Part shown: positions 1,248 to 32,257 of the stretch, in pieces | How positions within the stretch are numbered: the first letter of the stretch is position 1 | Layout: each line of letters begins with the position of its first letter | IMG/VR virus record: IMGVR_UViG_3300022699_000278 | Coordinates: 7,070-71,069 of that record | Source of the DNA: a virus | Length of the DNA stretch: 64,000 nucleotides | Reading direction: 5' to 3' (one strand) | The notes under the pieces: generated by a model | Databases searched by the model: none | What the model was told of the DNA's origin: nothing | Seen by the model: only the letters and a program-made list of their open reading frames with translations | Position numbers and translations under genes: made by a program

Positions 1248-1407
1248 ATTGCGCCCAACTCCCTCAGGCACCCGCCCGAAGTGGCTTTGTGAAACCCTCG
1301 CATTCATGCATTGTCCACTTGCCCTTATAAGGGATCTCGACACCACGACACCCTTCATTTTGGCACGTTTCACAAAGACATTTTGGGCTGCCTGTGTTGG
1401 TGGGCGT
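1248..1407 (-). repeat. attC-like hairpin A1 with a coding loop
   Basis: CACCAAC-A-CAGGCAGCCC ... GGGCGGGTGCCTG-AGGGA-GTTGGGCGCAAT; arms nearly identical to those at 15184-15355. Confidence 0.75.
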
Positions 1408-1548
1408 GTTTTCGCCATCCGCATTTTTCTGCCGGGCGGCGACCTTGCGAGTAACAACCTCTGTCAACATCGCGTGAGCCATCGTTACGAGTGCATCGTC
1501 TGGCGCTCCACTTACCGCGCTTATCAAGTTTTCTGCCACCTTATCCAC
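1264..1548 (-). CDS. Hypothetical protein (cassette A1), Cys-rich C-terminus encoded in the attC loop
   Basis: ORF with GAAGGTGG leader; shares NTGSPK and LRAGA* with ORF 15200-15517. Confidence 0.6.
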   Translation of the reverse strand: MDKVAENLISAVSGAPDDALVTMAHAMLTEVVTRKVAARQKNADGENTPTNTGSPKCLCETCQNEGCRGVEIPYKGKWTMHECEGFTKPLRAGA

Positions 1549-1594
1549 GATCTACCACCTTCCCCGCCCGGCCTACAATTCTCCAGGCGAAAAT

Positions 1595-1623
1595 ATGTAC
1601 ACCAACTATACGTTATATGTAAT
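1595..1623 (-). other. attI/dif-like recombination site A
   Basis: ATTACATATAAC-GTATA-GTTGGTGTACAT: inverted arms with a 5-nt spacer, heading cassette array A. Confidence 0.65.
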
Positions 1624-1646
1624 GTACATGAGATACACCATTATTA

Positions 1647-1871
1647 TCAATGTCTTATGTTTGGGTATAGTTTTTTTGTATCTATGCCTTTTCTCTGACT
1701 TGCGCGTAACGCCACAATCTGTATTCCATGGTTTATGGTAGCCTGATTATTTTTGTTACCGCCAACAGAAGCAGATACATCCTCATAATATCTTTTCATA
1801 AACCTTGTCAGATTTCCATTAAAACCTTCAAGGGTATGACCACATTTAATTACTCTTTTCTTTTTTTCCAT
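1647..1871 (-). CDS. Hypothetical protein
   Basis: 74-aa ORF downstream of a TTGCGC-N17-TATATT promoter-like sequence. Confidence 0.5.
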   Translation of the reverse strand: MEKKKRVIKCGHTLEGFNGNLTRFMKRYYEDVSASVGGNKNNQATINHGIQIVALRASQRKGIDTKKLYPNIRH

Positions 1872-1906
1872 AGTACAAATATATACTTGTACATAAGTAG
1901 GCGCAA

Positions 1907-2500
1907 CTATTTTTTTGCAAGGATTATATAAATGCCATTGTAGTCACGTTTTCCAGTAAGCTGCAGGTCTGACTCGTACCCGTGCTCTTTCAACATATAC
2001 TTTAATTTGCTGGTATTCCAATGTGGTAGCGGATTGGCTCCAATTTCATCATGACCATATTTGAAAGGATCGCCACTTCTGGTGTGTATAACAACCTTGT
2101 TGCAGCGTTCAAAGACCGTATTTAGTTTTTTTATTTCGTCATCATTTAAGTGGTGCAATACATAGCTTGCTAAAAACAGATCAAACTCAATTTTATCCAG
2201 ATCAACAAACTCGAACATTTCATTTATCAGGGTAACATCTTTTCCTTCAAGGGTTACCTTCGATTGCTTGTAGTACTTTCTGTTCACCTCAATTCCGGTA
2301 TACCCGGCAATTATTCTGTATAAACATAGCGCATACATCCCTGCATTAGAACCAAGCTCAAGAACTTTAGCGCCCTTAAAGAAATCAATATTGTTTTCTA
2401 TCATCGGCAGTCTTTTCTTCAGTTTGTTGTATTTCTGGTATACCTTATCGCCCTTCTTCCAGTTCTTTGATATTTGCCGGTATTCTTTTTCGGTGATCAT
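1907..2500 (-). CDS. Class I SAM-dependent methyltransferase
   Basis: VLELGSNAG motif I, GIE motif II, FDLFLASYVLHHL; paralog of 7358-8518; ATGA coupling to the upstream ORF. Confidence 0.85.
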   Translation of the reverse strand: MITEKEYRQISKNWKKGDKVYQKYNKLKKRLPMIENNIDFFKGAKVLELGSNAGMYALCLYRIIAGYTGIEVNRKYYKQSKVTLEGKDVTLINEMFEFVDLDKIEFDLFLASYVLHHLNDDEIKKLNTVFERCNKVVIHTRSGDPFKYGHDEIGANPLPHWNTSKLKYMLKEHGYESDLQLTGKRDYNGIYIILAKK

Positions 2501-2691
2501 TTTACAGTTCCTATAATACAAACCATATCGTCCGGAAAGTTACAATCAGCACTTTCAAAGCTTATTTTCTCCATACCAAAACATTTGTCATCAGCAGCTA
2601 TTAAGTACTTCCATCCTCCACGTTCTTCATAATGCATCGGCTCTTTTGGCCCATCTACGTATCCATACCTATACTGATACTCATCTTTCAT
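2497..2691 (-). CDS. Hypothetical protein
   Basis: 64-aa ORF with ATGA overlap to the methyltransferase. Confidence 0.5.
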   Translation of the reverse strand: MKDEYQYRYGYVDGPKEPMHYEERGGWKYLIAADDKCFGMEKISFESADCNFPDDMVCIIGTVK

Positions 2692-2788
2692 GGGTGAAAC
2701 CCTACCGATCTATCGTTTGGCCTTGTAGACGTACACCTGCTTAGTATTTCATCTTTTGTGTATTTTATATATATATTTGATTGACTCA

Positions 2789-3052
2789 TTACCCTATTAA
2801 ATACGACTTAGAAAATCTTTTTTTTAAAAGCTTTTCCCTTTTCTTACCCTCAGTAGTTTCCCACCAGTCCTTATCGTATTCTTTATTATACTCCAAAAGT
2901 TTATATGACATTTTCTTCGCCATACGCTCAGCTTCTACAAGCTTTTTACGCACCCTTCTGTCATGTTTTTTGTCACCTTGGTGAAGATCATTTATTTCTC
3001 TGAGGACTTCGCAAAGAGTTCTTACCTTAGTTGCTCTTCGTAACGACATCAC
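2789..3052 (-). CDS. Hypothetical basic protein
   Basis: Overlaps the GT4 stop, operon-like. Confidence 0.6.
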   Translation of the reverse strand: MMSLRRATKVRTLCEVLREINDLHQGDKKHDRRVRKKLVEAERMAKKMSYKLLEYNKEYDKDWWETTEGKKREKLLKKRFSKSYLIG

Positions 3053-4011
3053 AGCGCCACAGCACTTTCTTTTTTAACGTCAATCAACACACTTTCAAAT
3101 GCTTTCTTATACTGCCTGGCAATAGTATCTATATGGATGTGTGCTGGCACAATCATCGTCTTCCTATATGACAAAAGCCCATCAAGTGCTTTTTCAACCA
3201 ATTCAGTATCTATTGGGGGTGGGCTGTTTTTCTGCAACGTTGGCTTTATTGGCTTACTGTCCAGTGGAAGTATTGCACCATACTCTTTTACTATTTCGGC
3301 GTTGCCGCCGATATTGCCTGATATAACAGGTGTCCCGGCAGCAAGAGCTTCAACAACAGCATTGTCACACCATGAAAACCAGCAGATGCTTACCATCACA
3401 TCTGCCATAACCAAGTATCGGCGCAGCAGCTTTTCCGAAACATCTCCTACATATTTAATCTGTTCTTTTGATTTTCTTTCTTCTCTTATTTTGCCACAAA
3501 ACCAGAAACACACATCGGAGTGTTTTTTTATATAATTCTCAGCAATACGAATCATTTCTCTCATCCGCTTATGGGGCCTGACTTTGCTGGATACATATCT
3601 TCCTGAGACTATAACATTCTTTGGGTACTCCGAATCCATTGGCTCAACTTTATAATCTTCAGGATTAGCTCCGTTATATATAATAAACTCCTTTTTGCCC
3701 CTAACTCCAAGTATCTTGGTTACCATGTCGTATGCGAATTTTGTCTGGTAGATAACACCGTCACTAGTTTTTATCGTGTGCTTTATCATTTTCCTGCGCC
3801 AATCGTATTTCTTATCCTTTTCCAGATGAATCCCGTCTATTCGAATCACTTTTCTGCCTTTAGGCTTTTTCTTCCAGTACGACAGCCCAAGTGTCAAATC
3901 TGGCTTGCTGGTGACTATTTCAACACCATTTCTCTCAAGTGCAGGAATAAGCCGTTGTATAAACTTGCTTTTCCCGGTTGAATTCTTCTCGTATTGTATA
4001 GCTATTTTCAT
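3049..4011 (-). CDS. Glycosyltransferase family 4 (GT-B)
   Basis: IIYNG, HKR, NAVVEALAAGTPVISGNIGGNAE (EX7E-type region). Confidence 0.9.
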   Translation of the reverse strand: MKIAIQYEKNSTGKSKFIQRLIPALERNGVEIVTSKPDLTLGLSYWKKKPKGRKVIRIDGIHLEKDKKYDWRRKMIKHTIKTSDGVIYQTKFAYDMVTKILGVRGKKEFIIYNGANPEDYKVEPMDSEYPKNVIVSGRYVSSKVRPHKRMREMIRIAENYIKKHSDVCFWFCGKIREERKSKEQIKYVGDVSEKLLRRYLVMADVMVSICWFSWCDNAVVEALAAGTPVISGNIGGNAEIVKEYGAILPLDSKPIKPTLQKNSPPPIDTELVEKALDGLLSYRKTMIVPAHIHIDTIARQYKKAFESVLIDVKKESAVAL

Positions 4012-4129
4012 ATGTCTATGCTCGTGATAGATACTAAGTCACTAACCTCAAGGTCTTCAAAGGAAGGTGTGAGCATCTCCAAAAACTTACCTTTCCCAAA
4101 TTCATTTAACTTATATTGAATGTGAAGTT

Positions 4130-4846
4130 TCAAAGAATACGTTCCTTGTAATAATTATAAAGTTTATTCCATTTATCATGAACAGTTTTGTTTTTTCTAC
4201 TACAATGCCAAATAATAGAATCATCAGAAAATTGATTATCATTATATTTTTTACCAAGTTCCTGAAAATCTATTTGGTCCTTAAATTTATTGTAACATTT
4301 CCACAAATATTTCTGGTCGTCATACCATTCCAAATGTCGTTCAAGTTTTTCATTCAATCGTTTCAACAAAGCTCGTGTTATATTACTATTCCCTAAAACA
4401 AATACCCCTTTCTGTAATTTTCTTTTGTCCGACTGATCAGGTTTATACATAATCTTCATTGTATTCGCTTTAACATTTTCCCACAACTCGTCAAGATTTC
4501 CTCTTACTATAATATCGACATCCATATGAGCAACTTTTGAATATCCTTCATTTAATGCATCTACCATTGGTGCCGTTCTTTTTGACATTATTGAATTACC
4601 ATAAACATGATTTTTGTATGTAGAAATATTTTTTTCAGATAATATTGAATCTCCATAAACATGGATTCTGCGAACTGTTATATTTTTGTAAACATTTTTT
4701 ATTTTTATACATGATTCTTCAGATAAATCATATGCATATACCAACACTTTTTCATCAAGAGCATTCTCGGAGATTGATTTTAACATAACGCACAATTGTT
4801 CAACATAATTACCATAATTGTTTATTTCCACAGTAATTATATTCAT
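4130..4846 (-). CDS. GT-A fold glycosyltransferase (GT8/GT77-like)
   Basis: MDVDIIVRG DxD motif, DDQKYL, C-terminal KYND...IIWH. Confidence 0.75.
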   Translation of the reverse strand: MNIITVEINNYGNYVEQLCVMLKSISENALDEKVLVYAYDLSEESCIKIKNVYKNITVRRIHVYGDSILSEKNISTYKNHVYGNSIMSKRTAPMVDALNEGYSKVAHMDVDIIVRGNLDELWENVKANTMKIMYKPDQSDKRKLQKGVFVLGNSNITRALLKRLNEKLERHLEWYDDQKYLWKCYNKFKDQIDFQELGKKYNDNQFSDDSIIWHCSRKNKTVHDKWNKLYNYYKERIL

Positions 4847-4874
4847 AGTAATATTTCTACCTTATTTTTTAGGT

Positions 4875-5633
4875 TCATATCGGAAACATCGTGTTTTCTC
4901 TGGTAATGCCCTTTTTTTCCATCTGTCGCAACCGCTTCTTCTGCAATTGTTTCGTTTCTTTATACCATTTATTATCAGCTTTTCTCTTCTTATGTTTCTC
5001 CTCCGAATGCTTCCGATAGAAAGCAACCGGAATATCAATCTTTTTCTTTTTGACGTGATTAAACGGCGAATCTGGATGTATCCCGAGGCGCATGCTCATT
5101 TCCTTGTCTTCTCCTGATCGCAGCCCTTCGTACCAGCCGCCGAATCGCTCAAACACTCTTCTCCTGTACATAACTGTCTGCGGATTTACCTCTGAGGGAT
5201 GTACTCTCAGTTTACGCATCTTCTGGCATGCCTCATAGTACATCAAATCACCACGTACTTCGAGCGCCTTACCCCATACAACATCTATTTTCGGGTGTTT
5301 ATCGAGGTATATTTTCTGCAACCTCAAAGAACCTGGCACACGCATGTCATCGGCATCGAGAAATGTAATGTAGTCTCCTTTAGATATTTTAAGCCCTATA
5401 TTCCTCGCCACCGAAACACCACCGTTCACATTCAAGGGTATATAATGTATGTTTCGTTCGGGAAATTTAAAAGGCCGGAAGATGTCGTTTACCACGTCCT
5501 TTGTTTGGTCGGTACTTGCATCGTCAACTATTATTACCTCTAAGCTGTCTTTGTCGAGTTCCCACACTACCGAATGAAACGCGCTCATAATGTATCTGGC
5601 ATAGTTATATGTCGGTATTATTACGCTAATCAT
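4875..5633 (-). CDS. Glycosyltransferase family 2
   Basis: ISVIIPTYN, IIVDDASTD, NGGVSVARNIGL, FLDADD, GED. Confidence 0.95.
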   Translation of the reverse strand: MISVIIPTYNYARYIMSAFHSVVWELDKDSLEVIIVDDASTDQTKDVVNDIFRPFKFPERNIHYIPLNVNGGVSVARNIGLKISKGDYITFLDADDMRVPGSLRLQKIYLDKHPKIDVVWGKALEVRGDLMYYEACQKMRKLRVHPSEVNPQTVMYRRRVFERFGGWYEGLRSGEDKEMSMRLGIHPDSPFNHVKKKKIDIPVAFYRKHSEEKHKKRKADNKWYKETKQLQKKRLRQMEKKGITRENTMFPI

Positions 5634-6184
5634 AGCATTCCCATAACTTTCTTCTCAAATTTACCGCCCTTGTGCGATCCCGGCTTGTTGTCCTCTGCAA
5701 TCTGAACCGGCACAAACTCCATTCCAACAGCATACATGGCAGCACACCTTCTGCCGCCATGGTATATTTCATATCCTGTAAGCCAGTCGGCAAGGTATTC
5801 AAACCGCGTCTTCCACAATGGTTCTGCAAGCACCAGCACCGGCTGTGCTGCATTACGGCTTTTGCTGAAGCCACGCTTCTTTATACTCTTGAGTATTTTA
5901 TACCTGGACCCAAAGATATGCTCCTTAATAGCGCTTTCAGTCCACTTCTTCATACCAAGCTTATACCTCCACCTGCGGTCCTCTGCAAATCGGCAATGCT
6001 TTAATACCGTCCAGTTCCGCCCGTGTTTAAGAAGCATCTGCGCACACTCCACCTGCGGACTCTTCGGAAGGCTCATGTCGTATCCCCATATATCGTGGTT
6101 TATCAGCTTAGGGATAAACTGATATTTCAGTTCACGCAGTGGAAGGCTTACCGGTTTTCCTTCGAGGAGGGCGTATTCACTCAT
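5630..6184 (-). CDS. ParB/Srx-like domain protein
   Basis: KSIKKRGF...PVLV...YEIYHGGRRCAAMYAVGMEFVPV resembles the ParB N-terminal G-x-x-R motif. Confidence 0.6.
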   Translation of the reverse strand: MSEYALLEGKPVSLPLRELKYQFIPKLINHDIWGYDMSLPKSPQVECAQMLLKHGRNWTVLKHCRFAEDRRWRYKLGMKKWTESAIKEHIFGSRYKILKSIKKRGFSKSRNAAQPVLVLAEPLWKTRFEYLADWLTGYEIYHGGRRCAAMYAVGMEFVPVQIAEDNKPGSHKGGKFEKKVMGML

Positions 6185-7122
6185 ATCAGCGCCCTGAAGA
6201 AGGTTAAATACTGTTTGGCAATATTCTGAATGTATAATTCCTTAGCCAAGCCCTTATCGTAGTTCCATGTCAATGATTCTTTCATGGCCTTTATAAGGAC
6301 TTCCTGATTTATCTTTGGTGGCTTGTTGAGATTTACCGGTCTGTATTTAAACGGTTTATCTTTCAATACCTTCCCGAATACCAGCAACTCATGCGTACCA
6401 CCCTGATCTGTGCATATTACCGGGAGCCCGGCCACTTGTGCCTCAACAACACTGTTCGGACATGCGTCCACATAGGTAAGATGTATCATCGCGTGGCACG
6501 ATCTATAATAAACCGCCAGTTTGTCATCTTTTACATTGTCCTCAAATATTATGTTCCCGTTGTTACCGTACTTCTTATTATACCCCAGAGTGTCGCCGCA
6601 AACATAAAGCGTACTCTTTGGAATTCCAGCTTCAAGAAACGCTCGTATAATTTGATTCAGACGTTTTTGTTTCAACCATACTCTCGTGCTTGCTAAAAAT
6701 ATTACCCGCTCCGGATCGGTTTTTATAAGTGGCTCTACACCATAATTCCGTGGGTCGGCACCGTTGAGTATCACTGTCTCCGGTTTGTTCGGTTTGCATA
6801 CAAGCTTGTGATAAATCTTTTGGGCGTAGAAGGACTGATAAACAACGGCGTCAGCCTTTTTAACTGAAAGCGCCTTTTCGTTGTTTATCTTACGCCAGTT
6901 CATATTGGTGTCAATATTTGCTGGCCCAACGCGGATAACCTGTACCTTGGCTTTTGAACCATAGTTCATCCTACCGATATTAAGAGCAATGTCCGCTTTG
7001 GCCTTCGAATCAGGAGTAACGTTTATACCCATTTCATGCCATGCTTTAACAAGGCGTTGGCAAAATTTACCTTTCCCGGTTTTCCCACGGGCGTAGTATT
7101 TTGGATTTACATGTATCTTCAC
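6181..7122 (-). CDS. Glycosyltransferase family 4 (GT-B)
   Basis: VILNG, QKR, DACPNSVVEAQVAGLPVICTDQGGTHE; paralog of 3049-4011. Confidence 0.9.
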   Translation of the reverse strand: MKIHVNPKYYARGKTGKGKFCQRLVKAWHEMGINVTPDSKAKADIALNIGRMNYGSKAKVQVIRVGPANIDTNMNWRKINNEKALSVKKADAVVYQSFYAQKIYHKLVCKPNKPETVILNGADPRNYGVEPLIKTDPERVIFLASTRVWLKQKRLNQIIRAFLEAGIPKSTLYVCGDTLGYNKKYGNNGNIIFEDNVKDDKLAVYYRSCHAMIHLTYVDACPNSVVEAQVAGLPVICTDQGGTHELLVFGKVLKDKPFKYRPVNLNKPPKINQEVLIKAMKESLTWNYDKGLAKELYIQNIAKQYLTFFRALI

Positions 7123-7128
7123 ATTTCC

Positions 7129-7728
7129 TCAATCAATATCACAGAGATACCACCGCTTTTCCTTTGAGTGCCACATCATATCTCCTATTTTGTAACTGCC
7201 GAACGTTTTTACACCGTGTTTTGCCTGTGTTCTTTTCGCCCATTTAACAAACTTCTTGTACCCTTCCGGCGAGTGATCGAGGTGTGAGTCTGCACCCCAA
7301 TCATACGGTATTCCATACATGTAGTCCTGCCACGCCTTTTCCATGGCAGGAATGTGCTCAGTCTTTATCGCATAAGCCTTCGCCTTGTGCAATGTTCTTT
7401 TGAACAGAAGGTTTATGTTCACCTGTACTATTTTCATTGGCTTTGGTGCTACGCCGAGTTCGTGGAGCTTTTGCCACTTTTTGAATATCTTTTTCACGTA
7501 CCGGAGCTTTTGTGCTTTTTTCCATGACAGGCTGTAATACACCTTCATCCCCACTATCCTGCTTTTTTGTACGTAGATTCCGACCCGTCCCTTTGGCAAC
7601 ATCTTTCCTTTGAGTAGTACCGCGTGGCTTCCCTTCAGAAACCCGTCCTTGCCATTGACGTGTACTCCGTCCTCGGGAGCTTTCATCTTTTTCCTCTCGA
7701 TGAACTTCAGCACTCCCTTTATCTCCAT
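7129..7728 (-). CDS. Putative kinase-like protein (RIO/Bud32/Kdo-kinase type fold)
   Basis: VGMKVY (Lys), LHELGVAPKP, terminal WYLCDID; SD GGAGG before ATG. Confidence 0.5.
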   Translation of the reverse strand: MEIKGVLKFIERKKMKAPEDGVHVNGKDGFLKGSHAVLLKGKMLPKGRVGIYVQKSRIVGMKVYYSLSWKKAQKLRYVKKIFKKWQKLHELGVAPKPMKIVQVNINLLFKRTLHKAKAYAIKTEHIPAMEKAWQDYMYGIPYDWGADSHLDHSPEGYKKFVKWAKRTQAKHGVKTFGSYKIGDMMWHSKEKRWYLCDID

Positions 7729-8518
7729 CCAGAGCCTCCTTGGTTTCTGCGTCTATGCTTTCCTGCATTGCCTTTTCCTCAATGCTCCTCATCTCTTCTT
7801 TGGTTGTCCCATTTTCTGCAGCAGTTTTTTTTACCGCCTTGGCACCCTCGGCCAATTCCTCCGTGATTTCTTTTGTGTATGTCGTCTTTTCAGGCTCAAC
7901 AAACCCCGGCTTCGTTCCGATCACAATATGGAATTTTTTGTCAGGCCCGAACTCCCACTTTGTCTCGAAGCCGTTTTTCTGCAGGTAGTTTATCACGCTG
8001 TTGTAATGCCAGAATGCATGGTTGTTGTGCTTTCGGCGACCTTTTTTGTTTCTTTTGGCATATCGACTCATTACAATGATCACATCAACTTTCGGCAGCA
8101 CGTTCTTCTGAAACATGTCCACCTCTTTGTCACTGAAGTGATAGAGAACATACGAAAGGAAAACCGCATCAACCGGTCGCGAAATAGTCCCTCGTGCAGT
8201 TCTCCGCATAAACGTTTTAACGCTCATGTTCATGAACTCAACGTCCTTGTTTTTAATTTGCTTTTTGATTTCCAGGGCCTGGTTATAATACCCATTCTCG
8301 CCCTCAACACCGGTATACGATTTTGCAATCTGAGCAATATGATACCCGGCGAGCCCGGCATTTGAGCCAACTTCAAGCACATTTTTCCCGGTAAACAGGG
8401 TGATATGCTTCAGCAGCGTAGGAAATCGAACAGTATACCTGTCGTATTTTTGGTATACCGTTCCGTGCTTTTTCCAGTCCTTTGAAAGTTCGTTGTATTG
8501 CTTTTTAGTCAGCAACAT
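7358..8518 (-). CDS. SAM-dependent methyltransferase with a long charged C-terminal tail
   Basis: VLEVGSNAG, GVE, LSYVLYHF; SD GAGGAG; tail overlaps the kinase-like gene by 371 nt. Confidence 0.8.
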   Translation of the reverse strand: MLLTKKQYNELSKDWKKHGTVYQKYDRYTVRFPTLLKHITLFTGKNVLEVGSNAGLAGYHIAQIAKSYTGVEGENGYYNQALEIKKQIKNKDVEFMNMSVKTFMRRTARGTISRPVDAVFLSYVLYHFSDKEVDMFQKNVLPKVDVIIVMSRYAKRNKKGRRKHNNHAFWHYNSVINYLQKNGFETKWEFGPDKKFHIVIGTKPGFVEPEKTTYTKEITEELAEGAKAVKKTAAENGTTKEEMRSIEEKAMQESIDAETKEALDGDKGSAEVHREEKDESSRGRSTRQWQGRVSEGKPRGTTQRKDVAKGTGRNLRTKKQDSGDEGVLQPVMEKSTKAPVREKDIQKVAKAPRTRRSTKANENSTGEHKPSVQKNIAQGEGLCDKD

Positions 8519-8529
8519 TGTATTCTCCT

Positions 8530-9477
8530 CTATTTTAATATGTTTACCAACCACATCATAGCCTGTTCTCGATTGCCTATTTTGCTTTTTATAACTTTAA
8601 TGTGTTCCTCGTTATCTAAATATACTGCATTTTTTATGGTTTTAATCGCCGATTTAACATTCAATGCCTTGTATTTCAAAGCAGTTTTCCCTGGTATACA
8701 GTGGTCGCTGCAGCCAGCCAGTGGTGCATCCGGGTATATTACCTTACACCCGCACAGTGCAGCCTCTATCGGTGGGTTATGTAGCCCTTCCTTTGTGCTT
8801 GTGGATACCCATGTCCCTATAGTATTATACATTTTTATCAGCTGCGAGTGTGAAGGGTTTTTTATAAACAGAACGAACCTGTCGTCAACAAAACGCCATA
8901 TTTTTTTATTCAAGTCATACCCATACCCAAAGTAGTTGTATTTATCACCAAGATTTTTAATCAGCTTCATTGCAAAATCAAAGTTTTTGCGTGGCTTGGT
9001 TGAAACCAGAAAACCAAGGCTCTTCGGGTTCCTTGCACCATTGTTGCTCCACTTGTCTATATCAACACCCTGATGTGCGATAGCCGTTTTTATACCGTGA
9101 GCAAGAAACCAGTCGTACAGGTTTTCACTGTTTACTATGACGTGAACCCTTCTGGCCTTTCTCAGAATATTAGCTTTTGACATTTGATGACTTTCAAGAA
9201 GCCTACACCAATAGTAGGCCCTTGCATTTTTTGGCTTTGTTTTTAACATGGGGCCAATGTCGCTTATTGAACATGCTATGCAAACATCTGTATCCGGGGG
9301 AATTCTTTTTAATGGTGGCTTATGCTTAATCCAAGTGTGCCTATCAGAATGAGTAACAATATGCGTTCTGTGTCCAAGCTTATTCAGAGTCTGTGTACAT
9401 AATATTATAGTTCGGCTGCCGCCACACTGGTTTAATCCACCATAATATGGATGCTGTGCACAGAAAGCTATTTTCAT
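8530..9477 (-). CDS. Glycosyltransferase family 4 (GT-B)
   Basis: GGSR N-terminal motif, RKN, EGLHNPPIEAALCG. Confidence 0.85.
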   Translation of the reverse strand: MKIAFCAQHPYYGGLNQCGGSRTIILCTQTLNKLGHRTHIVTHSDRHTWIKHKPPLKRIPPDTDVCIACSISDIGPMLKTKPKNARAYYWCRLLESHQMSKANILRKARRVHVIVNSENLYDWFLAHGIKTAIAHQGVDIDKWSNNGARNPKSLGFLVSTKPRKNFDFAMKLIKNLGDKYNYFGYGYDLNKKIWRFVDDRFVLFIKNPSHSQLIKMYNTIGTWVSTSTKEGLHNPPIEAALCGCKVIYPDAPLAGCSDHCIPGKTALKYKALNVKSAIKTIKNAVYLDNEEHIKVIKSKIGNREQAMMWLVNILK

Positions 9478-10271
9478 TCAATGATCCTTCTAATTGCCTT
9501 GACAACCTTCTCAACCGGAGGATTCCATTTATGTTTATCAAGCACCTTGCATGGTGTATTAAATGGATTCCAAAGTCGTTTATACCTGTTGCGGTTAGTT
9601 CCTTTAATAATTTTCAAATACTCGTTTCCGGTAATTACTACATGGGGACATCCGCAAAGAGATGCGAGGTGCATGGGGCCGGAAGAAGTTCCAACACAAA
9701 CTTTGGCAATAATTAGGGTATTACACAATTCCTGCAATGACCTGTCCCGCAGATCAACAGTTCCTTTAACGTGATATGCCCCACTTTTAGTTCCAATAGA
9801 AGCACAATGTTTTGGATCAACACCGAGTAGCTTCATCACTTTTTCGTATCGTGCTGGTGGGAAATTCAATTTTGACTGTCTATACTTTTTCATATGTCGG
9901 GCATGAAAAACAACCTTATAGCCATACCTGTTTGTTGGCGAAGGTGCCGTCCCGTACATAACATATTCCCTCGGCCACATCATACAAACGTTACGGCGTG
10001 GTTCAATAACTTTGGCGTCCGGATACTTCCGCTTTATTTTGTCGGGCATGTGCGTCACCTTGCCATTCAGCAGCCACCGATCGGAGTCACCTTTTTTATC
10101 ATAGTGGTGTATTTTGTCAGCAAAGTCTTCGTATAAGTAGTCATTACCTGTTCTACAAACAATAACCGTTTTGCCATAGTTTCTGGAACGCTTACGTATT
10201 GCCGGTATCCATGTAGTAAGATTCCAACCAAATTCAAGCGCAGTGTCTGGTCCTGCAAGCAATTTTTTCAT
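9474..10271 (-). CDS. Glycosyltransferase family 9 (heptosyltransferase-like)
   Basis: VDLR..SLQEL, VCVGTSSGPMHLASLCGCPHVVI. Confidence 0.8.
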   Translation of the reverse strand: MKKLLAGPDTALEFGWNLTTWIPAIRKRSRNYGKTVIVCRTGNDYLYEDFADKIHHYDKKGDSDRWLLNGKVTHMPDKIKRKYPDAKVIEPRRNVCMMWPREYVMYGTAPSPTNRYGYKVVFHARHMKKYRQSKLNFPPARYEKVMKLLGVDPKHCASIGTKSGAYHVKGTVDLRDRSLQELCNTLIIAKVCVGTSSGPMHLASLCGCPHVVITGNEYLKIIKGTNRNRYKRLWNPFNTPCKVLDKHKWNPPVEKVVKAIRRIIE

Positions 10272-10301
10272 TCGTGCCTTCTATTTCCTCACAACGGATT
10301 G

Positions 10302-10700
10302 CTAATCGTCATTAAATCTTCTTTTGTACGATCCTCGCATTTTATACGGAAACATTTGAAATGTTACCGGGTGGTCCACCCAGCAAACACCGACGTATGC
10401 TGAGCCTTCCGGAAGGCTGTTCATCCAGTCCCTTTGATGTTTATCTAATCTTGAACATGGCATTGTATTTCCTTTTGCCTCTTTAACTTCACATGCGATA
10501 AATTTGCTGTTTCTACTAATATATCCGGTATAATCTGAAATACCATCTGACCGTTCGTAAACTACGGTTAGTTTGTTATTTATTTTTATGACCTTTGACC
10601 GTGGTTGATGTCGGAACATTGCTAAGCCGTTAGATTTGAAATACCACTCTGCAGCCTGTTCACCGGTTGTTCCATTGGATTGTTTTTTTATGGTTGTCAT
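10302..10700 (-). CDS. RecU-like Holliday junction resolvase (PD-(D/E)XK)
   Basis: SDYTG...FIACEVKE...SRLDKHQ. Confidence 0.75.
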   Translation of the reverse strand: MTTIKKQSNGTTGEQAAEWYFKSNGLAMFRHQPRSKVIKINNKLTVVYERSDGISDYTGYISRNSKFIACEVKEAKGNTMPCSRLDKHQRDWMNSLPEGSAYVGVCWVDHPVTFQMFPYKMRGSYKRRFNDD

Positions 10701-10809
10701 ATTAACAACATTTCCAATCTACAGAATTTTTATCGTTGTAGGCAATAAAATTTCGCCATTTTACTAAAACAAAAGACTGACAGACATTAAGAACAAAAGG
10801 AATTATAGT

Positions 10810-11076
10810 ATGACTGATGAACAATATTATAAAATTAAGTCCTTTGTTCTTTCTCTGTTTGAGAAAGAAGAACAGTTTTGGATTGAATCTCATAATTTTT
10901 CTGATTTATTTGACCTTTCTCACGGTTATTATCAAGAATTGATTGAACGTGTGACAAAAGAAGATCACCCCTTTTTGAATGACGCTCGTTGTAAAGACGA
11001 ATACGGCGACCCATCCGGCCAGATTCAGTTCTACCGGAAATTAGAAGAGGGTGGGAACCCTGTCCATTTACAATAG
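10810..11076 (+). CDS. Hypothetical protein, counter-oriented
   Basis: SD AAGGA; preceded by core-like GTTGTAGGCAAT at 10735; antisense to the distal part of ORF 10835-11182. Confidence 0.5.
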   Translation: MTDEQYYKIKSFVLSLFEKEEQFWIESHNFSDLFDLSHGYYQELIERVTKEDHPFLNDARCKDEYGDPSGQIQFYRKLEEGGNPVHLQ

Positions 11077-11362
11077 AATCTAAATCAAATTCAATACCAT
11101 TTAATTCAACATATACAGGAGCATCATCGTTCATAAATGTATCGAATTTATTTAATATCGATCTCAAAGTTCCATAGTTCATATAACAACTCCTAATGGC
11201 GGTACTTTCTATATGCGATCTCTGTTGACAAAAGTATTATGAACCCATTTTATCTAAAATCCAATTACCTATAATAGGTATAGCATATCCAATTGGGATA
11301 CAAATAATCATAGAAACAATAAATGGAACAAAAAACGCTATTAAATAAAGGATGATAACATT

Positions 11363-11857
11363 ATGAGTAGTAATACCCCAGAATGTGTAAATTTTCTCCC
11401 CATCATCAGCACATTTTTTGGTTCTTTCTTTGGTGTTATAATTGGTGCGATTTTGAACAATCGTTTTGTTATCAAGAGTACAGATTTGCATTTTTTTAAT
11501 ATCGCCGCTATTAAGTTTAGAAAAGAAATCCACCCTTTTTATAGTGAAGTTCGAGAAATGCTCTTGAAAGATAACAAAGGAATGATCGGCAACAATGAAA
11601 CATGGTCTTATAGAAGAATGCAACAAATCCTTCCCGAGCATAGAAAAATTATTGAAGAATTTATTTTCTCTATTCCTATTAACCATAGGCATAGCTTCGA
11701 CATAATTGCCGACACATACTGTCCCCAAAAAGAAACATATACAGAAGATGATATTAATGCGATGTATTGGTCTGGAGTTGATATGAAAGTTGAAATGTCT
11801 ATAAGAAATAAAATTAAAGAAAAAATTGAACAGATGATGAATTTTAAAATCACGTGA
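11363..11857 (+). CDS. Hypothetical protein with an N-terminal TM helix (inverted cassette)
   Basis: FLPIISTFFGSFFGVIIGAIL; AT-rich; followed by an attC-like site at 11921-12005. Confidence 0.7.
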   Translation: MSSNTPECVNFLPIISTFFGSFFGVIIGAILNNRFVIKSTDLHFFNIAAIKFRKEIHPFYSEVREMLLKDNKGMIGNNETWSYRRMQQILPEHRKIIEEFIFSIPINHRHSFDIIADTYCPQKETYTEDDINAMYWSGVDMKVEMSIRNKIKEKIEQMMNFKIT

Positions 11858-11920
11858 TCTTTTTATTTTGTTAATTCCAATGCTAATAAAGCATGACAAG
11901 AAGTAAAATGGCGAAAAATT

Positions 11921-12005
11921 ACAGCCTACAACACGCAAAGGCAGGCTCGAAGACTCGCCCAAACGCTGACGCGCTTCTGCATTTGCGGAACCGTTGTTAA
12001 GTAAT
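11921..12005 (+). repeat. attC-like hairpin, short and non-coding
   Basis: ACAGCCTACAAC-A-CGCAAAGGCAG ... CTGCATTTGCG-GAACC-GTTGTTAAGTAAT. Confidence 0.75.
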
Positions 12006-12089
12006 CTCCACATAGTATAATTCCATCCAATATTAAATTCAAAAACTTGTCGCTAACGCTAACTGTTCGCGGTTATGCGAATGTGACAG

Positions 12090-12335
12090 CTATATCAAAT
12101 CCCAAAAATTATCGTTAACCGCTTGCGTAAATTCAGACGGCACATTTTTCTGACTTGCAATAAACTCTGTTAACTTTTCCTTGATATCCGCTAGCATTAC
12201 GGACGAACCGCTGTCGGTGGATGTAACCTTTGCTGCCACTAGATCGGCGACTTCCGCTGCTGCCACTGATGCCGCTTCGTCCGTAATGCACTTGCCACGT
12301 ATAGCATAAAATATTTCGTTGAACAGTGTCGCCAT
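12090..12335 (-). CDS. Hypothetical protein (cassette B1)
   Basis: SD GGGGAG; reads through R''-like ACATCCACCGAC; arm GCGGTT pairs with AACCGC-GAACA-GTTAGCG at about 12057-12074. Confidence 0.6.
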   Translation of the reverse strand: MATLFNEIFYAIRGKCITDEAASVAAAEVADLVAAKVTSTDSGSSVMLADIKEKLTEFIASQKNVPSEFTQAVNDNFWDLI

Positions 12336-12357
12336 ATAACTCCCCAAAGCAAAGTTT

Positions 12358-12386
12358 ATTTACACCAACTTATTGTTATCAGAACC
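12358..12386 (-). other. attI/dif-like recombination site B
   Basis: GGTTCTGATAAC-AATAA-GTTGGTGTAAAT. Confidence 0.6.
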
Positions 12387-12389
12387 ATC

Positions 12390-12701
12390 TTTTTTTATAG
12401 TTTTTCTGTATGTGCCTACCAGACAACGGCTTATTTATTTTTACACCTCTTGGGTCTGGCAAAGAATCGTACAAAACTTTTCGCTTTCTCATCACAACAG
12501 CATCAACAATTCTGTCAAAAAAATTCAATACTATTCAATCCTGTTATCCTTTTCCACTTCCGGTAAACCGCGTGTTCATTATATGATATTGCAATTGTGG
12601 TGCTCATTTGTGTACCAGTTTTTTATAGGGTCCTACTTTTGTATATATTTCGAGAATATGCGATCAATCTTTATCTTCAGTTTATTGTAGTTCTAGTTCA
12701 T
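12390..12701 (-). pseudogene. Possible decayed NinG-like gene
   Basis: Frame from 12701 reads MN*NYNKLKIKIDRIFSKYIQK*DP, resembling NinG N-terminal KLDxxFSxYIRxRD; in-frame stops; directly downstream of ninB-like gene. Confidence 0.35.
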
Positions 12702-12736
12702 TTTCCCTGAAATTTATTAAGTAATATACAGTTGCC

Positions 12737-13153
12737 TTATCTGTTATAGTGTGCATAAAAATCATCCCAACTATCGTCTCCGGGTTCTGGAAGCTGCACA
12801 CCGTTTTCATTCATGAAAAGTTTAATGCTGTCCAGAAACATTGTAAACTGTTTTGAATCCAGTTTGGAGGTGCCGCTTGTTACCGTAACCCTATCACCAA
12901 ACAAATCTTCTTTAATCTCTGGAAGAAACTTTTGGCAAAAGTATTTGTACAGTGTATCCTTGTCATTCCCTGTTTCATCCTGTATGCATTGTAACCACAT
13001 CCACATAAGCCTATTTGATGCGATACTACGAACCTTGCGCTTTGCCTTTACCTCACCGATAAACGGACAGTTGAGCTTTATTGCCCTAACCTGTTGTACA
13101 AACCTCTCCCGATCGGACTCTGTGATAATGATTGTTCTCATCAGAACGGACAA
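12737..13153 (-). CDS. NinB/Orf-family recombination protein
   Basis: RSIASNRLMWMWL...TSKLDSKQFTMFLDSI. Confidence 0.75.
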   Translation of the reverse strand: MSVLMRTIIITESDRERFVQQVRAIKLNCPFIGEVKAKRKVRSIASNRLMWMWLQCIQDETGNDKDTLYKYFCQKFLPEIKEDLFGDRVTVTSGTSKLDSKQFTMFLDSIKLFMNENGVQLPEPGDDSWDDFYAHYNR

Positions 13154-13398
13154 CTATCTTCTGCTTGCGGCTGTTCTCTTTGAAGTGTTTGTGTTGGGGC
13201 ACCTCCATATTCAGGCGCATCTTCACCGATGTGGCCAGACCACCACTTCTTTCCCTCACCAGTGGTTTTTGTCCAGAGCACCACCGGTATTGATATGCCA
13301 AAAATACGAATTTTTCCCTTTAATGAAGGCAACCTCTTTCCCTCCTGTGGTGGCACGCTATTGAGTACAATTTGTCCATTGTTGAGTTTAAAAGCCAT
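13141..13398 (-). CDS. Hypothetical protein (small SSB-like, acidic C-terminus ending PF)
   Basis: Ends EDSCPF; sits in the recombination module. Confidence 0.5.
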   Translation of the reverse strand: MAFKLNNGQIVLNSVPPQEGKRLPSLKGKIRIFGISIPVVLWTKTTGEGKKWWSGHIGEDAPEYGGAPTQTLQREQPQAEDSCPF

Positions 13399-13407
13399 AG
13401 AACGCTC

Positions 13408-14001
13408 CTAAATATTTAGATTGTATCGATTAAGAATATTGTTTAACTTTGTCATAAACCCATTAAGTTTTTCTTCAATTTCGTTGAAGTTTATATCTTT
13501 TGCAAAAAACCTTTTTTCGTAATATGCAAGATCACCGGAAAGATCGGAACAATAACCGAAATAGTCCCAATATTCGCGACCGGTACAAAACAAATTCCAT
13601 TTAATTTGCCATGCATATTTTTTATCTATTTTATCTGTTAAGATAACTCGGATATGGTTATCGGGAAGTAAACATTTTATTTCGACCCCCCCGTTCTCTC
13701 CGATCAACCCGTCGGGAGAACAGCCACACATACTATATACTGGATGTTCAATGTATGCGATTTCTTTTACTGCTGTATTATGTACAATTTTATAATATTC
13801 GAGGGCCTCATTCTCCATTTCAATACCACGTTTCATTGCTTGTGTTAACGGAGTCGCCTTTCTCTGAGCCATAGCAATCTCTGATATTAATAATGCCATA
13901 AGGTTTTTTTGCGCCAACTCGGACCCCATTAAATCATCCGCACGGGTTCCGGTTATCTTCCCGAGCTTTTCCGCAAACCATTCTTCTGACCGCTGTTTCA
14001 T
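13408..14001 (-). CDS. YqaJ/lambda-type exonuclease
   Basis: QRSEEWF..KLGKITG, MKRGIEME, GCSPDGL, VEIKC. Confidence 0.92.
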   Translation of the reverse strand: MKQRSEEWFAEKLGKITGTRADDLMGSELAQKNLMALLISEIAMAQRKATPLTQAMKRGIEMENEALEYYKIVHNTAVKEIAYIEHPVYSMCGCSPDGLIGENGGVEIKCLLPDNHIRVILTDKIDKKYAWQIKWNLFCTGREYWDYFGYCSDLSGDLAYYEKRFFAKDINFNEIEEKLNGFMTKLNNILNRYNLNI

Positions 14002-14002
14002 A

Positions 14003-14563
14003 TTATGCCTCTTTCTTCTTGAGCATTCCGATCACAACAGCGGCAGCACGAAAACCAAGGTCTTCAACAGTTTCCCCCCATCCACGATTTTTGATAAAAT
14101 CGTTAATCTTTTCGGGATCAACTTTTTTTTCTGCTGAAAGGGTGTGTATTTTATTTTTTTGTTCTTCTGTTGCTGGCCTGGTTTCTGTATGCCCGTTCAA
14201 GCTACCGTCATCGTCGTAAGTGAGTACGTTGAGTATACAGCATAACGAATACCTTCGTGCATACGTCAGGGCACTTCCAAATCGTATGGCCTCTGGTTTT
14301 GGCATTAGTAGGGTTATATTTACAACAGATTCTAATTGGCTTTCGTCATCATACAGTATTGTCTTTAGAAGCTGTTGTCCATCTCCTACCGTAGGAATAT
14401 AACAAACAGAAAGCCCTAATTCTATTAGAATTGGCATTACCGCATTTGTTACATCTTCGAGGTTCGCATATTTTGATTTTGTAAATTCGTTATTGCGGGT
14501 TTTATTTACACCAGAAAAAAGCCTCTGAAATTCAGCTATTTTTGTTAACATTTTTTGATTCAT
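14003..14563 (-). CDS. ERF-family ssDNA annealing protein
   Basis: SKYANLEDV, GSALTYARRYSL, DDDG; SD GGGAGG. Confidence 0.92.
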   Translation of the reverse strand: MNQKMLTKIAEFQRLFSGVNKTRNNEFTKSKYANLEDVTNAVMPILIELGLSVCYIPTVGDGQQLLKTILYDDESQLESVVNITLLMPKPEAIRFGSALTYARRYSLCCILNVLTYDDDGSLNGHTETRPATEEQKNKIHTLSAEKKVDPEKINDFIKNRGWGETVEDLGFRAAAVVIGMLKKKEA

Positions 14564-14616
14564 TCTTACCTCCCATTCACTTTGGCATGCTTTGATTACT
14601 CTTAATGGAATCATTA

Positions 14617-14859
14617 TTATGTGCTGTTGCCAGCCGACTCCATATTATTACTTTGGCCAGCGGACATGTTCAGGCGCTCATCATCGCGCCGATAATACTT
14701 TTCGAAACTATCCCAACTGTGATATGCACCATAAAACTCCATTGATGCATTGTAAACCATAGTGCCGTCGTGAGTATCGAAGTAAATAAACTGGACAGGT
14801 ACACCAAGTTTGCTATGCAGCTTGTGAGCGCCAATTCGCGTTACACCACTGAGGTTCAT
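14617..14859 (-). CDS. Hypothetical protein enclosed in an inverted-repeat loop
   Basis: SD AGGAG; flanked by an imperfect IR of about 38 nt (14621-14658 vs 14874-14912; TTGCCAGCCGA/TCGGCTGGCAA). Confidence 0.55.
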   Translation of the reverse strand: MNLSGVTRIGAHKLHSKLGVPVQFIYFDTHDGTMVYNASMEFYGAYHSWDSFEKYYRRDDERLNMSAGQSNNMESAGNST

Positions 14860-14924
14860 TTTGTCTCCTATCCGGCCAACTATAATTATAGACTCGGCTG
14901 GCAATTTTGCACTGCTGCTATTGA

Positions 14925-15140
14925 TTACCATATTATTCTTTTGGCGAACGGGTTAATCGCTATAGCCTTGTGCTCAAAAGGATCAATAAAGCGCAACTCA
15001 CCACGATCTTTAATAAACTCCATAACTGGGTAACGGCACTCTCTACCATTCACCTTTGTAAATCCTACATTCCAACGCAAAAATCGAAATCCATTTTCAT
15101 GTGCGATACGTTTAGCATCTTTAATCAACGTTTTTACCAT
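14925..15140 (-). CDS. Hypothetical protein (cassette C2)
   Basis: SD GGGGGA; follows core GTTGATTGCAAT at 15195. Confidence 0.6.
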   Translation of the reverse strand: MVKTLIKDAKRIAHENGFRFLRWNVGFTKVNGRECRYPVMEFIKDRGELRFIDPFEHKAIAINPFAKRIIW

Positions 15141-15183
15141 TGTATCCCCCAGTGAGCCAACCTATAAAATAAAAATCAATTTA

Positions 15184-15355
15184 ATTGCAATCAACGTTCT
15201 CAGGCGCCCGCCCGAAGTTGCTGATATACAAATTTACAAAACTGTGATAATACGCGCATGTCTCGACCATCAGCACACGTTGACTTATCTTCCACATACT
15301 TGTGAACCATTTCCTTAACGTCAGGCAATTTTGGACTGCCTGTGTTGTTAGACGT
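15184..15355 (-). repeat. attC-like hairpin C1 with a coding loop
   Basis: ACGTCTAACAAC-A-CAGGCAGTCCAAAATTGC ... GCAACTTCGGGCGGGCGCCTG-AGAAC-GTTGATTGCAAT. Confidence 0.75.
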
Positions 15356-15517
15356 AACTGGACCCACCGCAACACCATGTGAGGCCAAAATGTTATTTAA
15401 TTCCACCATAAGACCGCCGAAACGATTACGAACAACCTGCGGACGTTCTAATATTTCGAATAATGATTCACCGATGATAGAGTATGTATCAAGTAATACT
15501 TTTACTTCTTTTTTCAT
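15200..15517 (-). CDS. Hypothetical protein (cassette C1)
   Basis: SD GGAGG; contains NNTGSPK and ends LRAGA*, both encoded by attC arms. Confidence 0.65.
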   Translation of the reverse strand: MKKEVKVLLDTYSIIGESLFEILERPQVVRNRFGGLMVELNNILASHGVAVGPVTSNNTGSPKLPDVKEMVHKYVEDKSTCADGRDMRVLSQFCKFVYQQLRAGA

Positions 15518-22633: not shown

Positions 22634-22955
22634 AGTTTAAGCGTTAAAACTATGGTTATTTGGGCGGTATCCCCTGAGATTTTTCGCCACCCGCAGAAAG
22701 GCGGGACTGTGCCGTCGTGGCAACTCGACCCATCTGGTCTGTGGCGTGACGATCAACATCCCTGTTTTACGTCACTCAATGCTGCAGCCGTCGTGATTAT
22801 TGCCTGTTACTCAGCAATCCGGCTCGATGTACTATGATAACACCTGACAGCACCCGGTTATAATGTACTATAATTATCTGTGCTTGTCTATAGTTATTTA
22901 TAGACCTGTATTCTGACCTAGAATACACATTATCACACCTTGCAACATTTTGTTG

Positions 22956-22984
22956 TTGACAATGCAAGCGCTTGCGTGTATGTT
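22956..22984 (+). promoter_or_regulatory. Sigma70-type early promoter with a palindromic operator in the spacer
   Basis: TTGACA-N17-TATGTT; perfect palindrome GCAAGCGCTTGC at 22964-22975. Confidence 0.6.
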
Positions 22985-30830: not shown

Positions 30831-30940
30831 TTATGATGCGCGGTTTACATCGGCTAACAGGCCAAGGCGTACATGCCCAAAGCTGCACGCCCGCCGTTGG
30901 CCAACCCGTTGTACGCAATTAAGCCGGAGAGCAATATTAT

Positions 30941-31564
30941 ATGTGCGCCCGTAAATACAACATCATCTATGCAGACCCGCCGTGGAACGGATTGGGTTGG
31001 AATAATGGTTCAGGCAAAAAGTGTCCAGCTAACCATTACGCAGTGCAAGATATCGCGTGGATAAAATCTCTGCCGGTTTCAGAATTGGCCCAAGACACCA
31101 GCGCACTTTTCTTGTGGGTAACTTTTCCGAATCTAACAGGCGGGCTTGCTGTTATGGAGTCTTGGGGTTTTAAGTACGCAACGTGCGCTTTTACGTGGGT
31201 CAAGCGTAATCGATGTTCAGATGGTCGGTTTATGGGTTGTGGTAACTATACAAGGGCCAATTCTGAACTGTGCTTGCTTGGCACTCGTGGGAGTTGTCAG
31301 TCTTTGCGGAAGTCTCGTTCGGTTCGTCAGATTTGTGATGCTCCGGTTGGTAAACACAGCGAAAAACCGGCAGAGATACGCGACCGCATTGTGCAGCTTT
31401 TTGGCGATTTGCCGAGGGTAGAACTTTTTGCCAGAACAATCACGGCGGGTTGGGATGTGTGGGGTAACGAAGTTTCATCATCAATAGAGCTGGGCGCACA
31501 GAACACTATGGAATCCGGCTCAACAGCGTATAACACAGGTTGGGTGCAATGCCGCCCTTTTTGA
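30941..31564 (+). CDS. MT-A70 family adenine methyltransferase (cassette D2)
   Basis: YNIIYADPPW, LFLWVT, FTWVK, GNYTRANSELCL, HSEKP, VELFAR, GWDVWGNE. Confidence 0.93.
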   Translation: MCARKYNIIYADPPWNGLGWNNGSGKKCPANHYAVQDIAWIKSLPVSELAQDTSALFLWVTFPNLTGGLAVMESWGFKYATCAFTWVKRNRCSDGRFMGCGNYTRANSELCLLGTRGSCQSLRKSRSVRQICDAPVGKHSEKPAEIRDRIVQLFGDLPRVELFARTITAGWDVWGNEVSSSIELGAQNTMESGSTAYNTGWVQCRPF

Positions 31565-32212: not shown

Positions 32213-32257
32213 ACCGTTATAGACAATAGTCTTCTTAAATTTATTATAGGCAGTGCT

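Follow-up and report, generated by a model that had tools for sequence, protein, structure and literature searches.

The stretch of DNA analysed here, called the window throughout, spans 64,000 nucleotides (positions 7,070 to 71,069 of IMG/VR virus record IMGVR_UViG_3300022699_000278) and forms part of a 71-kb record whose completeness is 93%. Genes for portal, large terminase, major head, tail fibre and primase-helicase proteins indicate a tailed phage. Two of its open reading frames (ORFs), A and B, end in copies of an imperfect hairpin that recurs in more than 100 uncultured phage contigs at gene boundaries. The stems of this hairpin covary and its loop is translated, protein halves on its two sides reassort, homology between phages breaks at its borders, and a Xer-like recombinase gene abuts three arrays of such sites. 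We put the chance at somewhat better than even that these gene-boundary sites constitute a Xer-type, integron-like cassette system with a coding, foldable centre, for which we infer the catalysis, the folded state and the acting strand.

ORF A (protein P0001) and ORF B (P0002) share only the peptides NTGSPK and LRAGA, the latter directly before the stop, as a sequence-only reading of the window had proposed. A BLASTP comparison aligns just 22 residues around NTGSPK (10/22 identical, E 0.004). The 18-nt stretch read as NTGSPK, AACACAGGCAGYCCAAAA, lies at 1381-1398 and 15329-15346 on the minus strand, and the 19-nt stretch read as LRAGA*, CTTCGGGCGGGYGCCTGAG, lies at 1263-1281 and 15199-15217; each is present in exactly two copies across the whole 71-kb record. 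At up to 3 mismatches, the first has only these 2 matches in the window, with 0.15 expected and two or more found in 0/100 shuffles, and for the second 0.00 are expected. The two stretches are the 5' and 3' arms of a hairpin, pairing as CAGGCA/TGCCTG and GCCC/GGGC; the 3' arm bulges by 3 nt (GGG), and two positions are A.C mismatches. The sequences enclosed by the motifs, 99 nt in ORF A and 111 nt in ORF B, give no alignment, in agreement with the earlier claim that the loops are unrelated. Site copy 1 consists, in order, of a left flank, CAAC-A, the 5' arm (1381-1398), the coding loop, the 3' arm (1263-1281), a spacer, GTTG and a right flank, with the TGA stop of ORF A inside the 3' arm. Here, the family hairpin is the minimum-energy fold on both strands (DNA z -2.4 and -4.7).

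The extent of the family was established by pattern scans of IMG/VR, metagenome and species-genome collections keyed on the left arm; all family figures derive from the matches listed in these scans and are lower bounds. We counted at least 170 left-arm matches in at least 146 sources, at least 120 with the right arm within 260 nt, and at least 91 unique copies. Left-arm conservation is partly by construction, as this arm was the search key; the right arm and the GTT box were unused in the metagenome scan, and an earlier scan keyed on the right arm also recovered canonical left arms. In the species genomes scanned, the motif occurs in phage-like contigs only, among the matches listed, and elements inside metagenome-assembled genomes (MAGs) are confined to single small or phage-like contigs. 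A 168-kb contig binned in an archaeal MAG (contig C2 of G006, locus L026) carries elements at both ends (282-3770 and 167790-167971) and probably represents a mis-binned large phage genome in circularly permuted form.

No counterpart of the element was recovered from cultured-phage records (INPHARED) by megablast, blastn or tblastn, nor from Rfam, whether at the gathering threshold or with E relaxed to 10. ORFs A and B have no match in Pfam or PHROGs, the ESM Atlas returned sub-0.9 leads only, and literature searches gave no account of this element family. Known ribozymes and an invertible segment were considered as identities and dropped. Loose BLASTP found no protein family common to all five element-bearing genomes. 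The elements form a large, well-supported structured DNA family that is apparently undescribed.

Hairpins in the family measure 30-190 nt. The 3' arm carries the bulge in canonical copies (GGG) and in the variants examined, and the left flank is followed by C-A. The unpaired spacer that separates the hairpin from its flanks measures 1-2 nt 5' of the stem and 4-6 nt, ending C-G, 3' of it. Adjoining the conserved arms is an 8-bp upper stem whose sequence varies from copy to copy while complementarity is kept through all four kinds of Watson-Crick pair. Within this stem 658 of 728 cells are Watson-Crick, with 5 G.T and 13 A.C, and the mean pairing over the first 9 positions is 7.6 compared with 4.5 for shuffled partners. 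A 72-sequence alignment has 94.3% of cells paired; the figure is 83.1% for shuffles and 25-36% for slid controls. Double-change cells number 194, compared with 57.6 +/- 6.9 in shuffles. Diverged copies also show compensatory changes in the conserved stems, e.g., GGCGCA/TGCGCC, GCCGCA/TGCGGC and GGCCAA/TTGGCC. Neither strand shows a preference for wobble pairs (5 G.T, 13 A.C), which suggests pairing as DNA and not as an RNA helix.

The sites lie in accessory regions at gene ends, with a ribosome-binding site (RBS) and start codon following 30-60 nt later. In all 23 of the 23 model matches examined, the site occupies the 3' end of an ORF of 35-207 aa in sense orientation. Of the 91 unique copies listed, 82 have an upstream ORF that runs across the entire hairpin to a TGA stop in the 3' arm; where this TGA varies it becomes TAA and the stop is kept. 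The arms are read in the -1 frame in four further copies (QHRQPKI...LRAGA*), four others terminate ahead of the right arm, and in one the right arm is read in a different frame. A -1 frameshift at C_CCA_AAA was rejected, as the upstream ORF of the four out-of-frame copies is already in that frame. Since some copies read the arms in other frames, it is the nucleotide sequence that is conserved, and the shared peptides are by-products of a nucleic-acid element, just as the sequence-only reading had surmised. That NTGSPK and LRAGA are conserved protein motifs, with nucleotide identity as a side effect, is hardly credible: the single frame used by those 82 copies speaks for it, and set against this are the reading of the same arms as QHRQPKI in four copies and their lack of translation in others, arm substitutions with no bias towards synonymous changes, and compensatory changes that preserve pairing.

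The loops behave differently from the arms in this respect. Across 15 related loop pairs, which are not independent, differences at codon positions 3, 1 and 2 number 107, 32 and 18, respectively, and 87 codon differences are synonymous versus 39 non-synonymous. Because the differences fall mostly at third positions, the loops are translated and under protein-level selection, and the module boundaries coincide with the site, which bears out the earlier proposal of a swappable module encoded in the loop.

The orientation of the sites also bears on an RNA-level explanation, in which the element acts in the mRNA (e.g., by stabilising its 3' end, as an RNase III-type processing site or as a translation-linked switch) and the breakpoints described below are incidental. 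The element follows the direction of its gene in 23/23 model matches, the position of the stop codon within the 3' arm is constant, and of the two strands of copy 1 the antisense one gives the best fold, G.U pairs taking the place of A.C. Yet the covarying stem lacks wobble enrichment on either strand, ribosomes translate the whole stem in the large majority of listed copies just given, and no Rfam family matches. An RNA role would also leave unexplained the dif-like flanks, the hairpin-less versions and the pile-up of breakpoints, and we judge it distinctly improbable.

The protein halves on the two sides of the site occur in different combinations, as anticipated from the two ORFs of the window. 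P0003 is identical to P0002 over 55 of 63 N-terminal residues and continues into a Cys-rich module related to the C-terminal half of P0001 (23/59 identical, E 3e-12), and P0005 joins the N-terminal half of P0001 to a different C-terminal half. The C-terminal half of P0001 recurs in P0004 and P0006-P0012 behind at least five unrelated N-terminal halves, in some cases without the NTGSPK/LRAGA arms. At the DNA level, four pairs share the upstream 150 nt (at least 80% identity) and not the loop, five share the loop and not the upstream sequence, and five share both. The pairs L042/L049 and L035/L108 are nearly perfectly identical from the GTTG of the preceding site to ...CCCAAAAT.

Homology breakpoints were mapped by comparing loci with one another, using matches of at least 90% identity over at least 70 nt. 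In 23/23 distinct junction pairs, involving nine different modules, identity of the downstream module starts between -8 and +2 of the G of GTT, and in 11 of them at -1 to 0. The sequence upstream of the junction is often of an unrelated hairpin type, sharing CGTTR only. Identity of the upstream module stops 0-8 nt past AAC in 12 distinct pairs. Altogether, there are 513 unique internal homology ends; CGTTR is no more than 6 nt away from 172 of them, compared with 17.1 +/- 3.8 at random positions, and a further 64 lie near YAACA, compared with 24.6 +/- 5.0. Other breaks coincide with the left arm's inner end or separate the right arm from the spacer, which argues that homologous exchange within the arms also occurs.

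Breaks inside or at the end of the long arms fit a different explanation, modelled on the stem-loop elements called PeSLs, for which PMC2839356 and PMC4122927 describe modular shuffling in T4-like phages. The hairpin would be a terminator or attenuator, the right flank would be part of the next gene's promoter, and modules would shuffle by homologous recombination (Erf/YqaJ) at the arms, with no site-specific enzyme. In both cases, conserved stem-loops flank small accessory genes and serve as crossover points in phages without an integrase; the sites described here lie at gene ends with an RBS and start codon shortly after, and the phage encodes Erf, YqaJ and RecU-like proteins. Unlike PeSLs, which are intergenic and have consensus sigma-70 promoters and terminators, the sites here are mostly inside coding sequence and bear dif-like flanks. 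No U-tract follows the hairpin, and TANNNT lies 16-18 nt from the TTG of GTTG in only 8/80 copies, for which reason a sigma-70 promoter with its -35 element at GTTG was rejected. Many junctions join unrelated hairpin types that share CGTTG only, too short a sequence for homologous recombination, and a Xer-like recombinase abuts three arrays. We regard this explanation as unlikely, although not far-fetched.

The flanks resemble the arms of Xer-type sites. Both are conserved over 11-12 nt, with the consensus ACATCnnAYAA (ACATCCCACAA) on the left and TTGKnnGMAAT (TTGTGTGAAAT) on the right, where outer conservation (GMAAT) is stronger; in dif-type sites, too, the XerD arm is the better conserved of the two. 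The left inner motif YAA has C in 71/80 copies and T in 9/80, and the right inner motif TTR has G in 68/80 and A in 12/80. The central region of dif-type sites measures 6-8 bp. Hairpin-less phage sites have a centre of 5-7 nt, and in hairpin-bearing ones the centre would come to 7-8 nt in 79/80 copies if the hairpin were looped out. In having two arms of ~11 nt arranged as imperfect inverted repeats, the sites are like dif/Xer sites and the xrs (pdif) modules of Acinetobacter plasmids; they also bound exchangeable gene modules, as described for xrs modules in PMC11705084. Identity of the flanks to the XerC/XerD arms printed in PMC2731167 averages 6.1-7.0/11, compared with 2.7-2.9 for random 11-mers; 11-13 of 80 flanks reach at least 9/11, and the best right and left flanks reach up to 10/11 (XerD and XerC, respectively). 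Unlike dif and pdif sites, most phage copies carry a foldable, often coding, central insert of 30-190 nt, and the sites recur as direct repeats at the end of almost every gene in the accessory region. They also lie inside ORFs, whereas chromosomal dif sites are non-coding according to PMC2731167. A search for dif-like patterns in 201 genomes from the phylum of one MAG with phage-like contigs gave 10 matches versus 8 in the control, and this phylum was dropped as a candidate source of the host dif site.

Because hairpin-less and hairpin-bearing sites have the same flanks, the hairpin could be a palindromic selfish insert, similar to a miniature inverted-repeat transposable element or to a dif-targeting insertion sequence (such sequences are known), that colonised the centre of dif-like gene-boundary sites, played no part in cassette exchange and acquired its coding use later. 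Most copies have AAC at each end (AAC-ACAGG...GAG-AAC-GTT), and identical hairpin units are found between different flanks, e.g., in L078 and L081. An element that spread recently should show the opposite of what is seen, namely unrelated loops between conserved arms; moreover, the stems covary over long divergence and no transposase is associated with the sites. A selfish origin of this kind is improbable.

Recombinase genes encoding 268-298 aa are linked to the sites in G004, G002 and L022, and the three proteins are 27-43% identical to one another. In each contig, a hairpin-less dif-like site lies within ~40 nt after the recombinase gene and is followed by 3-5 sites, all co-oriented with that gene. 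The best NCBIfam matches of these proteins are XerA/integron integrase, an integron-integrase subfamily, XerC and XerD; against TIGR02249 they score 114-125 bits, with a cut-off of 265 and the match in two stretches. As judged from gene order and sequence, recombinase and array together are an integron-like platform. A reverse search of IMG/VR with the recombinase returned two of the known contigs and one distant homologue (L171) only.

GTT follows the hairpin in 80/80 copies with a scorable flank, and junctions map at C/GTT, the attC crossover being at G|TT; AAC was part of the search pattern and its conservation is therefore not independent evidence. Like attC sites and their integrase-less clusters (CALINs), the phage sites have AAC...GTT borders and an imperfect hairpin with a variable terminal part, one per small cassette, and as in integrons some arrays adjoin a Xer/IntI-clade recombinase and then a simple double-stranded-type site analogous to attI. 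Clusters of attC without an integrase have been reported in virulent phages (PMC9892861). The sequence-only reading had taken the sites for integron attC, an assignment that we do not retain. Whereas attC has an unpaired central spacer of 5-6 nt in each arm (PMC5027507), the spacer here measures 1-2 nt on one side and 4-6 nt on the other, and the bulge occupies the distal 3' arm, opposite to the extra-helical bases of attC in the ORF-proximal L'' arm; the unpaired features are hence mirrored and differently sized. Flank-to-flank Watson-Crick pairing exceeds expectation at positions 4-6 only (67 versus 61.5, 48 versus 36.5 and 26 versus 19.7 of 79), and as covariation does not extend beyond ~5 bp, the dif-like flanks are not the paired 7-bp R box of attC. 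No integron integrase accompanies the sites: the linked recombinases score far below the IntI level and are co-oriented with the array, and, unlike in integrons, ORFs read through the whole site. In addition, the scanned species genomes carry the motif in phage-like contigs only, among the matches listed. A classical attC whose folded bottom strand is recombined by a bacterial IntI is therefore very improbable.

In the Xer-type cassette system that we favour, the hairpin would be looped out, leaving 7-8 nt, the size of a tyrosine-recombinase central region. A tyrosine recombinase of the Xer/IntI clade, encoded beside some arrays and elsewhere supplied by a trans source or the host, would exchange strands at YAA|C on one border and at G|TT on the other. 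The cassettes moving between phages would be [GTT...gene...AAC] units as well as the hairpin units themselves. Strand exchange at one border only, with the junction then resolved by replication or a resolvase, would yield the two classes of breakpoint. The arms are translated as NTGSPK and LRAGA* because small ORFs run into the site. As the loop specifies a genuine C-terminal module, crossing over at the left border would yield in-frame chimeras of N- and C-terminal modules. A broader proposal, to which we assign somewhat less than an even chance, is that environmental tailed phages have their own integron-like cassette system, operated either by a small Xer-like recombinase or by the host's Xer, in which one border moves genes and the other swaps C-terminal domains in frame, generating chimeric small proteins below the level of the gene.

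According to PMC5027507, single-stranded substrates are also recombined by XerC and XerD.

The attP of CTX-type phages is a folded single strand used by XerCD, and its active form depends on a hairpin of ~100 nt. The phage sites are like it in combining a Xer-type site with a hairpin; unlike it, they have the arms outside the hairpin, whereas the Xer binding arms of CTX-type attP are made by the stem of the hairpin.

Several observations weigh against the Xer-type cassette reading. There is no tyrosine recombinase in the window's record (93% complete; no PF00589 match) or in G001, G003 and G005. A recombinase is present at 4 of 32 loci with at least 2 kb of upstream sequence, corresponding to three contigs, its proteins fall below every NCBIfam cut-off, and the distant homologue L171 is without sites. 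Site copy 2 taken alone does not have the family hairpin as its minimum-energy fold (z -1.1 and -0.4). To our knowledge, no Xer site described to date carries a 100-nt central insert, and extrusion of a hairpin of this kind from duplex DNA should be costly. The junction counts include related events and the pairs are not independent, the loci were ascertained via the left arm, and BLAST carries alignments on into conserved boxes. Finally, the inner motif is mostly ACAA...TTGT and not the ATAA...TTAT of dif and pdif sites, which XerCD needs according to PMC11705084; one published dif site (Shewanella) has CACAA.

Further sites of the family are distributed along the window (Table 1). They are densest in array D (30.8-33.0 kb, plus strand), where six consecutive genes each end in a family site, one of them (ORF 31582-31899) identified by eye only. 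The hairpin-less sites of the window have an 11-6/7-11 layout. One of these forms the 3' end of the MT-A70 methyltransferase gene (81 bits), whose protein consequently ends ...YNTGWVQCRPF*, and another (12358-12388) has a right arm identical to that of many metagenomic copies. Two array D genes had been put forward as examples of loop-encoded modules. ORF 31961-32212, with two CxxCxGxG motifs, overlaps a diverged site that the model R1 scores; for the Zn-ribbon ORF 31582-31899, which carries CxxC...CxxC, the site was assigned by eye and is not significant. Pfam scores for both folds are below threshold.

Table 1 Coordinates of the two ORFs, the family sites and the recombination genes in the window
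Feature	Position	Strand	Description
ORF A (P0001, 94 aa)	1264..1548	-	N-module, NTGSPK, Cys/His-rich C-module, LRAGA*; RBS-like AAGGTGG upstream
ORF B (P0002, 105 aa)	15200..15517	-	N-module, NTGSPK, KLP...QQLRAGA* C-module; GGAGG RBS upstream
Site copy 1	1248..1409	-	Model R1 95.8 bits; folds as family hairpin
Site copy 2	15184..15357	-	R1 95.8 bits; 5' arm 15329-15346, 3' arm 15199-15217; weak upper stem
Hairpin-less site	12358..12388	-	GGTTCTGATAA CAATAAG TTGGTGTAAAT; weak, 9.6 bits
Hairpin-less site	22933..22963		Weak; divergent intergenic region; overlaps promoter-like TTGACA-17-TATGTT
Short non-coding variant	30845..30919	+	Stems GGCCAA/TTGGCC and GGCG/CGCC, 3'-arm bulge, between CTAACA and CGTTGTACGCAAT
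Hairpin-less dif-like site	31521..31550	+	ACAGCGTATAA CACAGG TTGGGTGCAAT; 3' end of MT-A70 methyltransferase gene 30941-31564
Degenerate site	31775..31930	+	End of Zn-ribbon ORF 31582-31899; ACAACAC...GCCTGAGAGTGTTGGTAAAAT; by eye only, R1 7.6 bits, E 3.5 (not significant)
Diverged site	32057..32227	+	In 3' half of ORF 31961-32212; R1 18.5 bits, E 0.004-0.018; right box CGTTATAGACAAT
Variant site	32649..32733	+	After ORF 32258-32671; perfect 11-bp stem AGTGCTAAAAG/CTTTTAGCACT between CGCACAACA and CGTTGGTGTAAAT
Short site	32899..32939	+	End of ORF 32739-32936; GACATAA C...CG TTGTGTGAAAT; weak, 8.9 bits
RecU-like Holliday-junction resolvase	10302..10700	-	PF03838, 28.4 bits vs cut-off 25
YqaJ-type exonuclease	13408..14001	-	PF09588, E 8.5e-20; operon headed by ORF B
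ERF-family single-strand annealing protein	14003..14614	-	PF04404, E 2.6e-18; operon headed by ORF B

Other signals accompany the sites and the two hairpin-bearing ORFs. A TATAGG box lies 28-35 nt past GTT, just before the RBS of the next gene, at many sites (e.g., 32749-32757 and 15137-15145 in the window) and in 22/80 metagenomic copies, and could be a phage-specific promoter or processing signal; a T7-type RNA polymerase was not found in a search that had no positive control. A conserved upstream repeat (TGTACATTAC...) precedes ORF B at 15546-15585 on the minus strand, with a sister copy before ORF A at 1593-1632, and the same family, which belongs to minus-strand genes, has members at 16078-16117 and 21197-21236. 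A second upstream repeat family precedes plus-strand genes that carry the RBS AGGAGGACAGTATG (23630-23664, 24321-24355, 25580-25614 and 25760-25794). From their sequence and placement, both families look like phage promoters or operators. On the plus strand, a 149-aa ORF (1249-1698) covers the whole of ORF A in antisense and is probably a by-product of the palindrome and base composition.

Elsewhere, the window encodes a set of sugar- and methyl-modification genes that is unusually large for a phage (204-8554 and 16159-16950, minus strand). It comprises five glycosyltransferases above the Pfam cut-off (families 1, 2 and 8), a sixth at 16159-16950, a radical-SAM-like protein (SAM, S-adenosylmethionine) below the cut-off, and SAM methyltransferases, and may serve DNA or surface-glycan modification. 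An Sf6-type small terminase (21908-22633) and the large terminase (18618-20684), both on the minus strand, are located where the leftward and rightward gene blocks diverge. The tail-fibre ORF (46124-50122) contains three 300-nt direct repeats with 795-nt spacing that are 82-93% identical (46574-48464) and include nested repeats of 28-44 nt, resembling a repeated domain array. A 54-nt tandem repeat at 63767-63982, detected as three overlapping 108-nt copies of 82-83% identity, sits in an open-ended ORF at the window edge.

If the proposed mechanism is true, site-specific cassette exchange would extend to virulent-type phages without an integrase, and Xer-type sites and attC-like folding would be joined in one element. 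The recombination site would double as coding sequence, so that protein domains would be shuffled besides genes, providing a testable mechanism for part of the mosaicism in phage accessory regions. The sites could then also be a search handle for fast-evolving small phage proteins, likely factors of host takeover or counter-defence.

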